Below are positions 57,546 through 61,835 of a stretch of 64,000 nucleotides of DNA, in pieces; position 1 is the first letter of the stretch, and every line of letters begins with the position of its first letter. The translations under genes were made by a program, and so were the position numbers. Source of the stretch: Escherichia coli (GTDB lineage Bacteria > Pseudomonadota > Gammaproteobacteria > Enterobacterales > Enterobacteriaceae); assembly GCF_013122565.1 (NCBI RefSeq), contig NZ_CP053258.1. One strand, written 5' to 3'. The notes beneath the pieces were generated by a model. The model had not been told where the DNA came from. It searched no databases and saw nothing but the letters and a program-made list of their open reading frames with translations.

Positions 57546-59213
57546 TTATTGCAAACGTTCTAATAAACGAGCCAGTTTTTTATTGCCGCCGGCGACTGGC
57601 GACCATTGGTAATGCACAACCGGTTTGCTGGCGCTTTGTAGCTCCAGCGCAAAACTGCGTAATCCGATGTTAATCACGGCGACGTTTTCCAGTAATGACG
57701 GTGTGTGTTGCTGTGCGGCAGGCGAGAGCGGATGAATTAACGCTGCCGCCAGCAAGGTGGCTTCCGGTAGCGAACTCACGACCGCAATCCCCGCATCTTC
57801 CAGCGTGGCGATTTGCTGCGAGCGGCATTGCGGGTCACGTTCGGTACCTGTCACCGTGGCAATGGCGTACAGCGGTTGGCTGTCTGAACGCGCGGCACAG
57901 GCTTTTTGCCAGGCGCTCACCAGCGAGGCGGCAGGATCGGCGGTCGCACCGAAGCCAATCACGACATCAAGCAGCAGCACACGCACTTGCGGTTTAGCGC
58001 CGAGATCGGCAATTAACTGGTTGCGTAAGGTTGGGTCGATCATCGGATGGGGACGCCCGACTGTGTAGAAATCATCGCCGAGGTCAATAATCTGGTGACC
58101 ATCGGCGTCGAGCATCATGCCGTGATGATGGGCATCATCGGCTTCCACGCCAAGGTGTCCGGCAAGTAATCCCGCCGCTTCGGCAGCCAGCGTACCGCCG
58201 GTATACAAACCGCAAATAAATCCGCTGCTGGCAGGCGTTATCGCGTTACGTCGCGCCGTAACGCGTGAAAGCAGGCAAGCCAGGCGTGCGGCCTCATCCA
58301 GCGAGGAGGCAAACCAGACATTCTCGTCGCGGGCCACCGCCGGGGTATAACCTAAAAACAGCGCCACCGTCGGTTTGCCGGTTGCTTTCATGGCATTAAC
58401 AATTTTCAGACGCACAGCTTCGGCAGGTGGTTTTGAAACAAATGCCAGCACTTCGCTTTTCTCGTCTGCACTGAGCATTTCCAGCGCTGTTAGCGCACTG
58501 ATGCCGCCCACTTCACGGCTGAGGTCGCGGCCGCCAAGGCCAATCGCGTGAGTAATTCCCTCCCCTGCCAGCGCAATCTGCGAGCACAGCTCCTGAATCC
58601 CAGTACCGGAAGCGCCAATGACGCCAATGTTGCCTTCCGGCATCACGTTAGCAAAAGCCAGCGGCGTGCCGGCAATCATCGACGTACCGCAGTCCGGCCC
58701 CATCACCAGCAAGCCTTTTTCCCGCGCGCGGGTTTTAAGTTGGATTTCATCTTCCAGCGTGACGTTATCGGAGAACATCATCACGTTGAGGTTGCGATCC
58801 AGCGCCTGCTTCGCCAGCTCCGCCGCATACTCGCCAGCCACTGAAATCAGCGCCAGACTGGCGTCGGGTAATTTCTGACAGGCACTGTCCCAGCGACGCA
58901 CCTGCGTCAACGCCTGGCTGCTGCCTGACCCCTGCGCCAGTTGTTTTAGCGCCTCTTCAAGCTGCTGCATAATCGCCTGCGCGATCCCCGCATCCGCCGC
59001 TTCGCTACGAATTGCCACGCAAATATCGTTCGGCGTGGCGTTATTAAAATCGTCATGCCAGAAACCTGTGGTATCTAATAACGCTTTATTGGCGGGCGTA
59101 CCCATCATTACGGAAACATCATCAACATTTTCTGATTCGCTGAGTTTTCGTGAAATAATCATTAAACTGACCGAATCCTGAAAACACCCTTTTTTAATAA
59201 AGGCGTGGATCAT
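57546..59213 (-). CDS. fdrA: FdrA (succinyl-CoA synthetase alpha-like CoA-binding protein)
   Basis: 555-aa ORF MIHAFIKKGCFQDSVSLMIISRKL... Confidence 0.9.
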   Translation of the reverse strand: MIHAFIKKGCFQDSVSLMIISRKLSESENVDDVSVMMGTPANKALLDTTGFWHDDFNNATPNDICVAIRSEAADAGIAQAIMQQLEEALKQLAQGSGSSQALTQVRRWDSACQKLPDASLALISVAGEYAAELAKQALDRNLNVMMFSDNVTLEDEIQLKTRAREKGLLVMGPDCGTSMIAGTPLAFANVMPEGNIGVIGASGTGIQELCSQIALAGEGITHAIGLGGRDLSREVGGISALTALEMLSADEKSEVLAFVSKPPAEAVRLKIVNAMKATGKPTVALFLGYTPAVARDENVWFASSLDEAARLACLLSRVTARRNAITPASSGFICGLYTGGTLAAEAAGLLAGHLGVEADDAHHHGMMLDADGHQIIDLGDDFYTVGRPHPMIDPTLRNQLIADLGAKPQVRVLLLDVVIGFGATADPAASLVSAWQKACAARSDSQPLYAIATVTGTERDPQCRSQQIATLEDAGIAVVSSLPEATLLAAALIHPLSPAAQQHTPSLLENVAVINIGLRSFALELQSASKPVVHYQWSPVAGGNKKLARLLERLQ

Positions 59214-59528
59214 AACAACTCCTTAAAAATTGCACCCATGGCAATTGCACGAGCAGTGTTAATGTGGCGATTACGGTATCGATGACAACGGGTAAATAAG
59301 GTGATGAATATCACACAGGGATTATTAACAAAAGAATTCAAATAACCGTCAGGCTATTACGCGTTATTTTTTAATAAGCATGGTTGTTTTAAAAACAGGT
59401 TAAAAGCGCGAAGATTATCAAATAAATTCTAACTATATTTTTTTGCCTGTCTGGATCACATAATCCAGATATTTTCCCTGTATGTTAATTGCAGTCATGC
59501 TTCACACCGTCGTTAAAAAGGAAGACAG

Positions 59529-60578
59529 ATGAAAATCAGTCGGGAAACACTCCACCAGCTAATCGAGAATAAACTCTGCCAGGCTGGGTTAAAACGTGAG
59601 CACGCTGCAACCGTGGCTGAAGTATTGGTTTACGCCGATGCCAGAGGGATCCACTCTCATGGCGCGGTGCGCGTTGAATACTACGCAGAACGCATTTCAA
59701 AAGGCGGCACCAACCGCGAACCGGAATTTCGTCTTGAAGAAACCGGGCCGTGTTCGGCAATTTTACATGCCGACAATGCCGCCGGACAGGTCGCGGCGAA
59801 AATGGGTATGGAACATGCCATCAAAACCGCCCAGCAAAATGGCGTTGCGGTGGTCGGTATCAGCCGGATGGGTCACAGCGGCGCAATCTCTTATTTTGTG
59901 CAGCAGGCCGCCCGCGCCGGATTAATTGGCATTTCGATGTGTCAGTCCGATCCGATGGTGGTGCCGTTTGGCGGCGCGGAAATTTACTACGGTACTAACC
60001 CACTGGCCTTTGCCGCGCCGGGAGAAGGCAACGAGATCCTTACCTTTGATATGGCGACTACCGTACAGGCATGGGGAAAAGTGCTCGATGCCCGCTCGCG
60101 TAATATGTCTATCCCGGATACCTGGGCGGTCGATAAAAACGGTGCACCAACAACCGATCCGTTCGCGGTACATGCTCTGCTCCCCGCCGCCGGGCCGAAA
60201 GGGTATGGCCTGATGATGATGATTGACGTCCTCTCAGGCGTCTTACTCGGCTTACCGTTCGGGCGACAGGTTAGTTCGATGTATGACGATTTACACGCAG
60301 GGCGTAATTTGGGGCAATTACATATAGTTATTAATCCGAACTTTTTCTCCTCCAGCGAATTATTCCGTCAACATCTTAGCCAGACCATGCGCGAATTAAA
60401 TGCCATTACCCCCGCGCCCGGTTTTAATCAGGTTTATTATCCCGGACAGGATCAGGATATTAAACAACGCAAAGCCGCCGTCGAAGGCATCGAAATTGTT
60501 GATGATATTTACCAGTATTTAATTTCCGACGCGCTTTATAACACGTCATACGAAACGAAAAATCCCTTTGCGCAATAA
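59529..60578 (+). CDS. allD: ureidoglycolate dehydrogenase AllD
   Basis: 349-aa ORF MKISRETLHQLIENKLCQAGLKREHAATV... Confidence 0.93.
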   Translation: MKISRETLHQLIENKLCQAGLKREHAATVAEVLVYADARGIHSHGAVRVEYYAERISKGGTNREPEFRLEETGPCSAILHADNAAGQVAAKMGMEHAIKTAQQNGVAVVGISRMGHSGAISYFVQQAARAGLIGISMCQSDPMVVPFGGAEIYYGTNPLAFAAPGEGNEILTFDMATTVQAWGKVLDARSRNMSIPDTWAVDKNGAPTTDPFAVHALLPAAGPKGYGLMMMIDVLSGVLLGLPFGRQVSSMYDDLHAGRNLGQLHIVINPNFFSSSELFRQHLSQTMRELNAITPAPGFNQVYYPGQDQDIKQRKAAVEGIEIVDDIYQYLISDALYNTSYETKNPFAQ

Positions 60579-60599: not shown

Positions 60600-61835
60600 A
60601 TGATTACACATTTTCGCCAAGCCATAGAAGAAACGCTGCCCTGGCTTTCCTCTTTTGGCGCTGACCCAGCGGGTGGGATGACCCGTTTACTTTATTCGCC
60701 GGAATGGCTGGAAACCCAGCAGCAATTTAAAAAAAGAATGGCAGCAAGCGGGCTGGAAACACGTTTCGATGAAGTGGGGAATTTATACGGTCGCCTGAAT
60801 GGCACCGTATATCCACAGGAAGTGGTTCTGAGCGGTTCGCATATCGATACCGTGGTTAACGGCGGTAACCTCGACGGGCAATTCGGCGCGCTGGCGGCGT
60901 GGCTGGCAATTGACTGGTTGAAAACGCAATACGGCGCGCCGTTACGTACGGTTGAAGTGGTGGCGATGGCGGAAGAAGAAGGCAGCCGCTTCCCGTATGT
61001 TTTCTGGGGCAGTAAAAATATCTTTGGGCTGGCGAATCCTGACGACGTGCGGAATATCTGTGATGCCAAAGGAAATAGTTTTGTCGATGCGATGAAGGCT
61101 TGCGGATTTACTCTGCCGAACGCACCACTAACTCCGCGTCAGGATATTAAAGCCTTTGTCGAACTGCATATCGAACAGGGCTGTGTGCTGGAAAGTAATG
61201 GGCAATCAATTGGCGTGGTGAATGCAATTGTCGGGCAGCGTCGCTATACGGTGACGCTGAACGGCGAATCAAACCATGCAGGCACCACGCCGATGGGTTA
61301 TCGTCGTGATACGGTTTACGCTTTCAGTCGCATTTGCCATCAGTCGATCGAAAAAGCGAAAAAGATGGGCGATCCGCTGGTTCTGACCTTTGGGAAAGTA
61401 GAGCCGCGCCCGAATACGGTGAATGTGGTGCCGGGTAAAACCACGTTCACCATTGATTGTCGTCATACCGACGCCGCCGTGCTGCGTGATTTCACCCAAC
61501 AGTTAGAAAACGACATGCGGGCGATTTGCGATGAAATGGACATTGGTATTGATATCGATTTATGGATGGACGAAGAACCCGTGCCGATGAATAAGGACCT
61601 GGTCGCCACCCTGACAGAATTGTGTGAAAGTGAAAAACTGAATTACCGGGTGATGCACAGTGGTGCCGGGCACGACGCGCAAATTTTCGCGCCTCGCGTA
61701 CCAACCTGCATGATTTTTATCCCCAGCATCAACGGGATCAGCCATAACCCGGCGGAACGCACCAATATTACCGACCTTGCCGAAGGGGTCAAAACGTTGG
61801 CACTCATGCTTTATCAACTTGCCTGGCAGAAATAA
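60600..61835 (+). CDS. allC: allantoate amidohydrolase AllC (M20 peptidase family)
   Basis: ORF track 60582..61835; start placed at MITHFRQAIEETLPWLSSFG (411 aa). Confidence 0.92.
   Translation: MITHFRQAIEETLPWLSSFGADPAGGMTRLLYSPEWLETQQQFKKRMAASGLETRFDEVGNLYGRLNGTVYPQEVVLSGSHIDTVVNGGNLDGQFGALAAWLAIDWLKTQYGAPLRTVEVVAMAEEEGSRFPYVFWGSKNIFGLANPDDVRNICDAKGNSFVDAMKACGFTLPNAPLTPRQDIKAFVELHIEQGCVLESNGQSIGVVNAIVGQRRYTVTLNGESNHAGTTPMGYRRDTVYAFSRICHQSIEKAKKMGDPLVLTFGKVEPRPNTVNVVPGKTTFTIDCRHTDAAVLRDFTQQLENDMRAICDEMDIGIDIDLWMDEEPVPMNKDLVATLTELCESEKLNYRVMHSGAGHDAQIFAPRVPTCMIFIPSINGISHNPAERTNITDLAEGVKTLALMLYQLAWQK

Follow-up and report, generated by a model that had tools for sequence, protein, structure and literature searches.

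Promoters activated by LysR-type regulators have a classical layout, with a recognition site near -65/-70 and an activation site overlapping the -35 region. In the allantoin regulon of Escherichia coli, allD strictly requires AllS for its expression (Rintoul 2002, as cited in PMC12535856), and that of the divergent gene allF (fdrA) depends on both AllS and ArcA (Kim & Kim 2025, PMC12535856). The AllS site predicted in the latter study has its centre at -181 relative to the allF ATG, and a fragment covering -203/-144 was shifted in gels by a crude lysate; ArcA gel shifts were obtained with the fragment -142/-83 of allF (PMC12535856). An allR deletion left allF'-lacZ unchanged, predictions gave no AllR site between the two genes, the OxyR and SoxS sites predicted near the palindrome described below have little genetic support, and the factor that makes allD anaerobic-specific is stated as not yet identified (PMC12535856). 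A CRP site in the same spacer, bound in vitro with a Kd of 9.8 nM and centred at NC_000913.3 546586, is listed as novel in a 2026 preprint (PMC12871828). AdnB (AdnB/YdhB), a paralogue of AllS, binds TsttwTCAAwAwwwTTGaaGGCA.

The window analysed here is a stretch of 64,000 nucleotides in which the fdrA (allF) coding sequence (57546-59213, minus strand) and the allD coding sequence (59529-60578, plus strand) diverge from a spacer of 315 bp with 35.6% G+C; both gene identities are backed by the annotated K-12-like region. A sequence-only reading of the window had pointed to this AT-rich divergent spacer and, within it, to a palindrome with perfect 7-bp arms and a 6-bp centre upstream of allD, and both descriptions proved correct. 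The palindrome, TCTGGAT-CACATA-ATCCAGA (TCTGGATCACATAATCCAGA), occupies 59450-59469, has no strand, and is separated by 59 nt from the allD ATG; if the arms are extended, eight of nine positions are paired. Perfect palindromes with 7-bp arms and a spacer of 0-10 bp occur 81 times in the 64-kb window against 52.8 ± 7.5 expected from Markov-1 simulations, and 27.8% of 3000 simulated spacers of the same length and composition contain at least one. Taken alone, the palindrome is statistically unremarkable, and by itself it is weak evidence. A coordinate map anchored on the published CRP site (centre NC_000913.3 546586, corresponding to 59297-59318 of the window) places the K-12 fdrA ATG at 546680, the allD ATG at 546363 and the palindrome at 546423-546442 of NC_000913.3. 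The window itself is not K-12: it is 99.4% identical to the frog strain ET201 and about 96% identical to K-12 derivatives, its AllD is 99% identical to that of E. coli E69 and to that of E. whittamii, and its spacer of 315 bp compares with 316 bp in most E. coli, the difference lying at 59402.

A scan for AllD with one genome per species returned 80 loci, about 40 of which have the divergent fdrA-allD arrangement, and conservation of the palindrome was examined at about 50 gammaproteobacterial allD loci. Nineteen spacers, from Escherichia, Citrobacter, Klebsiella, Raoultella, Superficieibacter, Buttiauxella, Atlantibacter and others, were aligned with MAFFT, and 36 distinct Enterobacterales sequences were anchored on the heptamer GATCACA and aligned without gaps. 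In both sets the right arm ATCCAGA was found in Escherichia only, and the palindrome is complete in that genus only. At the equivalent positions of the MAFFT alignment Citrobacter has ATCAATT or TTAGATT and Klebsiella TTTAAGT, Superficieibacter has ATTTAGT, and the right-arm columns carry 0.2-1.2 bits. Across 19 genera, only 51% of the cells formed by paired arm positions are still complementary, which does not exceed the 50-56% obtained when the arms are slid by one to three columns; where the promoter is kept, the two arms are thus neither retained together nor co-varying. Lack of conservation of the palindrome in species with the allD/fdrA arrangement is the outcome that the sequence-only reading had named as speaking against its proposal, and it is the outcome observed.

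The 116 bp adjoining allD are almost invariant in Escherichia, with variation in the spacer confined to 59284-59292 and 59316-59412, and this makes right-arm conservation at genus level uninformative. Of 5304 E. coli genomes, 5020 carry a 50-bp core with 100% identity, whereas over the full spacer nearly all diverge by 1-5%. Even so close a relative as E. whittamii has ATCCAGT as its right arm, an uncompensated A-to-T change at 59469. Comparison of Citrobacter werkmanii (TAATCAATTT) with Escherichia (TAATCCAGAT) reveals three right-arm substitutions, each of which raises complementarity. Judged from these alignments, the symmetry of the palindrome looks like an Escherichia-only accident and not like an operator; a tempting palindrome would be mostly a lineage-specific coincidence, and recognising it as such spares operator hunting.

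The proposal of an operator nevertheless retains one part of its content, as the left arm overlaps the most conserved non-coding element upstream of allD and the DNA is regulatory in character; what fails is the dyad symmetry. The ungapped alignment of the 36 sequences displays three elements at fixed spacing. The most distal from allD is a 23-bp block, ATTATCAAATAAATTCTAACTAT (59414-59436, plus strand), with the pattern ATT-N5-A-N5-T-N4-C-N-AT, the key columns of which are kept in 31-36 of the 36 sequences. It extends from -40 to -18 relative to the G of the heptamer, ungapped, leaves 17 nt before GATCACA, would lie at about -80 to -58 of the allD promoter, and is a candidate AllS recognition site. 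The heptamer GATCACA (59454-59460, plus strand) overlaps the left arm and would correspond to about -40 to -33. It is invariant in all 19 spacers of the MAFFT alignment and exact in the 36 Enterobacterales sequences, for which it served as the alignment anchor, while both flanks drift. With a trailing wwwTT it covers 59454-59465, positions 0 to +11 of the 36-sequence alignment; its G and A (positions 0 and +1) are invariant, and a T is found at +10 from its start in 31 of 36. The sole variant of the heptamer is GATCACG in Proteus, and the 26-kb allantoin cluster of K-12 has only one intergenic copy of GATCACA. The third element, TATGTT (59481-59486, plus strand), is always 20 nt past GATCACA and conforms to TAnnTT at +27 to +32 (T1 in 35, A2 in 34, T5 in 31 and T6 in 34 of the 36 sequences), a signature by which it would be the -10 hexamer of the allD promoter.

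The arrangement GATCACN-N20-TAnnnT (N being A or G), sought at most 160 nt upstream of allD, is present at 43 of 52 gammaproteobacterial loci, at none of 27 Firmicutes loci and in seven of 15,600 shuffled upstream regions. The module is kept in at least five Enterobacterales families. Proteus, where fdrA is not the upstream neighbour, also retains it, with the 23-bp block at the same distance. Serratia sp. Ag1 has an insert of about 125 bp that separates the -10 region from the allD start codon and pushes the complete module back to about -206. Upstream of allD at three Wohlfahrtiimonas loci, GATCACA is replaced by GATCAAG within CTTAAC-TCAG-ATCAAG; this FNR-like TTGAT-N4-ATCAA arrangement suggests that half-sites of the CRP type and of the FNR type can replace each other in this element. 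No description of the allD module was found in the searchable literature, and queries with the sequences of the palindrome, the block and the CRP site returned the Footprint-seq CRP site only.

About 7 nt past the hexamer, a conserved CAG opens a leader that is highly conserved in Enterobacteriaceae. Because of the -10 signature and the onset of this leader, transcription of allD would be expected to start near 59493, at the A of the CAG (59493-59494, plus strand), which would give a 5' UTR of about 36 nt. A -35 hexamer is absent at 16-19 bp from the putative -10 element, as expected for an activator-dependent promoter. On the plus strand of K-12, which is not the strand of allD, Cappable-seq recorded no start between U00096.2 545500 and 546099. 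The allD 5' leader (59490-59528) is almost identical from Escherichia to Klebsiella, with the consensus CAGTCAkGCTyyACACCGTCGTTAAAAAGGAAGACAG. Conservation to this degree is not required by a ribosome-binding site alone and might be due to post-transcriptional control.

The functional unit is therefore best sought outside the symmetry, and it is probably the asymmetric, ancient allD promoter module and not the palindrome. In the direction of transcription the module would consist of the block at 59414-59436, 17 nt, GATCACA at 59454-59460, 20 nt, TATGTT at 59481-86 and a start at about 59493. The left arm of the palindrome would then be the -35-region element of an activator-dependent promoter devoid of a recognisable -35 hexamer, and the right arm, ATCCAGA, would be ordinary spacer that gained its complementarity via about three substitutions in the Escherichia lineage. 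In terms of mechanism, AllS would bind the 23-bp block for recognition (centre at about -70) and GATCACA(wwwTT) for activation (about -40 to -28), recruiting RNA polymerase to TATGTT; this step is put forward tentatively, with somewhat less than even confidence. The account as a whole, module and AllS reading together, is the best explanation at hand and is moderately likely to be right. Even then, the biology of allD is that of an ordinary activator-dependent promoter, and the module is a known kind of element; its phylogenetic footprint indicates the bases worth mutating, namely those of GATCACA, the 23-bp block and TATGTT.

The geometry of heptamer and block would fit the LysR layout if the start is at about 59493, as predicted. 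With LysR-regulated promoters such as those of BenM/CatM and CbnR, allD shares the dependence on a regulator of this type (AllS), a block at about -70, a second element over the -35 region and the absence of a -35 hexamer. It differs from them in that the palindrome is an even-length 7-6-7 dyad without a symmetric T-N11-A, its symmetric T/A pairs occurring at N6, N14 and N18 only, and in that the proximal element is more invariant than the block. The block of E. coli, ATCAAATAAATT, agrees at 11 of 12 positions with the AdnB core wTCAAwAwwwTT, and Erwinia has TTCAAAGAAAATTTGAA in the same place; in E. coli alone an AdnB-like box is at chance level, with 37 matches in the window scan against 35 expected. 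In favour of AllS, the conserved positions go past a CRP half-site at either end, to the G, the A and the T at +10. Against it, a proximal site more invariant than the distal one is atypical for a LysR regulator and argues for a universal reader such as CRP, and the fragment published as bound by AllS, at a distance of 35-110 bp, comprises neither block nor heptamer. The allS gene was outside the 3-kb flanks of allD at all but one locus.

Mapped by alignment, the AllS gel-shift fragment allFp-203/-144 corresponds to 59356-59415 of the window (no strand), with the -181 centre at about 59394. The palindrome, at -237 to -256 from allF, falls outside the DNA reported to bind AllS, and comparison with the known AllS site, as called for by the sequence-only reading, consequently lends it no support; AllS could still make promoter-proximal contact with the left arm. 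The stretch attributed to AllS (59383-59405) varies by indels of 1-2 bp between strains of E. coli itself and shows little conservation from genus to genus. Such polymorphism is unexpected for a spacing-sensitive LysR box, and all that is shared is a weak y-TAA-y-AA-like element. The evidence for the only mapped AllS site in the spacer is a gel shift with crude lysate, on DNA that is poorly conserved. It is conceivable, though rather doubtful, that the module is the true allD control region across Enterobacterales, that the database AllS site (allF -181) is secondary or mis-assigned, and that GATCACA is read by a universal factor, as a CRP-type half-site together with AllS. If true, the oxamate branch would come under the direct control of carbon status or anaerobiosis through such a reader.

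As the reader of GATCACA, AllS is a plausible candidate that falls short of an even chance, and CRP and some other factor are each possible at a lower and mutually similar level; the right arm is outside the conserved element in each case. If CRP is the reader, GATCACA would be a CRP-type half-site in a class II position (about -40.5/-41.5), from which CRP, possibly stabilised by AllS, would activate allD, with the right arm again incidental; we regard this as possible but on balance doubtful. The stretch TCTgGATCACAtt equals the right half of the CRP 22-mer consensus tctaGATCACAttt, and the presumed CRP centre at 59452.5 would be 40.5-41.5 bp from the putative allD start. The heptamer is invariant across families while the upstream block drifts, and its single variation (GATCACG in Proteus) affects the outermost base of the half-site, the least important for CRP (PMC12871828). 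CRP can moreover bind sequences with one half-site, such as TCCGC-N6-TCACA of yidL with a Kd of 10 nM (PMC12871828), and the divergent fdrA side carries a conserved class II CRP site that allD would mirror. The allD element resembles class II CRP promoters (-41.5), including that of fdrA/allF 150 bp away, in its perfect TCACA half-site, consensus flanks and putative class II position, but it has one half-site only: the left half, GCCTG at 59445-59449, matches at none of five positions and is not CRP-like in any genus, so that against TGTGA-N6-TCACA there are five matches among the ten core positions. The gap to the allD -10 element is 20 nt in all species, 1 bp shorter than the 21 nt at the fdrA class II promoter. 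CRP would also leave unexplained the invariant G and A before TCACA and the conserved T at +10, and the published CRP list gives only 546586 in this spacer and none at the palindrome (PMC12871828).

A different placement of the core promoter would make CATAAT in the palindrome centre (59459-59464, plus strand) the -10 element, with a start at about 59471, the palindrome spanning -21 to -2 and GATCACA kept as core promoter. CATAAT agrees with TATAAT at five of six positions, and across species it reads C-A-w-w-w-T with A2 invariant and T6 in 31 of 36; the published AllS centre (about 59394) would come to lie near -77, a typical LysR position. Its first base is nevertheless an invariant C and never T, the invariant upstream GAT would be left unexplained, and the downstream TATGTT looks more like a -10 element (T 35/36, A 34/36, T 34/36) and has a conserved leader at the expected distance, which makes CATAAT an unlikely choice. 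Slightly less likely still is that the palindrome is a true dyad operator of Escherichia origin, for instance for an aerobic allD repressor or for a dimer of the GATCACA reader. Such an operator would account for the perfect arms, which extend to eight of nine, for their presence in essentially all E. coli and for an overlap with the core promoter of a gene whose anaerobiosis regulator is still sought; the three Escherichia-specific substitutions all add complementarity, which is an after-the-fact observation. The symmetry is nonetheless absent from every other genus with the same module, the near invariance of the 116 bp by allD makes arm conservation unspecific, the change in E. whittamii is uncompensated, a palindrome of this size is expected by chance, and the motif matches no known regulator. 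The Escherichia right arm may even so add a lineage-specific operator to the allD promoter module. Finally, that the palindrome acts as a nucleic-acid hairpin, whether terminator, attenuator or DNA cruciform, is highly improbable: a terminator scan flagged 59448-59471 followed by TTTT, and the E. coli RNA folds at -10.9 kcal/mol (z = -3.6), but the fold is absent elsewhere (0 kcal/mol in Klebsiella, -2 kcal/mol in Serratia), it has 3 G-C pairs and 4 T's only, less than an intrinsic terminator requires, and it lies upstream of the putative start. Rfam returned no credible family for the hairpin.

AllR, which the sequence-only reading had named beside AllS as a regulator, does not suit the site. 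The operator of this IclR-family regulator, TTGGAA-N5-TTCCAA, a 17-bp inverted repeat derived from TTGGAAAAATATTCCAA (allS-allA) and TTGGAAAAATTTTCCAA (allR-gcl), belongs to the same regulon and is likewise an inverted repeat with TGGA/TCCA cores. The palindrome shares TGGA and TCCA only, separated by N8 instead of N7, and thus differs in a core spacing 1 bp wider, in the lack of an A/T centre and in its other arm bases; furthermore, the adjacent allF promoter is unaffected by deletion of allR (PMC12535856).

Several other candidates were compared with their consensus sequences by inspection and rejected: for FNR the right half, ATCAc, matches at four of five positions and the left half at one of five; ArcA direct repeats were dismissed by inspection; for IHF, the W and the second A of WATCAA are mismatched; the GG of sigma-54 is not conserved; the left part of a SoxS/marbox is not conserved; and for a MerR-type spacer operator the spacer is not conserved. 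Deletion of soxS has a slight effect only (PMC12535856). The spacer is not listed in FNR and ArcA ChIP supplements, which were obtained with glucose-grown cells and are hence uninformative here.

On the fdrA side of the spacer, the CRP site TAAGGTGATGAATATCACACAG (GGTGA-N6-TCACA; 59297-59318, no strand) agrees with the core consensus at nine of ten positions, and its GTGA and TCAC are invariant. TACCGT (59273-59278, minus strand) is the putative fdrA -10 element, its T, A and T being invariant or nearly so, and the distance from the CRP half-site to this TA.C.T hexamer is a constant 21-22 nt from Escherichia to Serratia and Erwinia. These features point to fdrA/allF as a class II CRP promoter, with the site at -41.5 and a predicted start near 59266. 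The CRP site falls inside the ArcA gel-shift probe of Kim & Kim (-142/-83). Further towards fdrA, a leader element conserved in Enterobacteriaceae, AATTGCACCCATGGCAATTGCAC (59228-59255), contains a TTGCA near-repeat and, on the fdrA strand, a terminator-like hairpin followed by TTTTT; it might form a structure in the leader or, lying past the putative fdrA start, serve as a binding site.

Downstream of allD, published genome-wide peaks lie inside allC (about 61330-61650 of the window), namely an anaerobic peak at U00096.2 543785 in the supplement of an FNR study and minor-sigma SELEX peaks at 543470 and 543560. These hint at an internal promoter ahead of allE.
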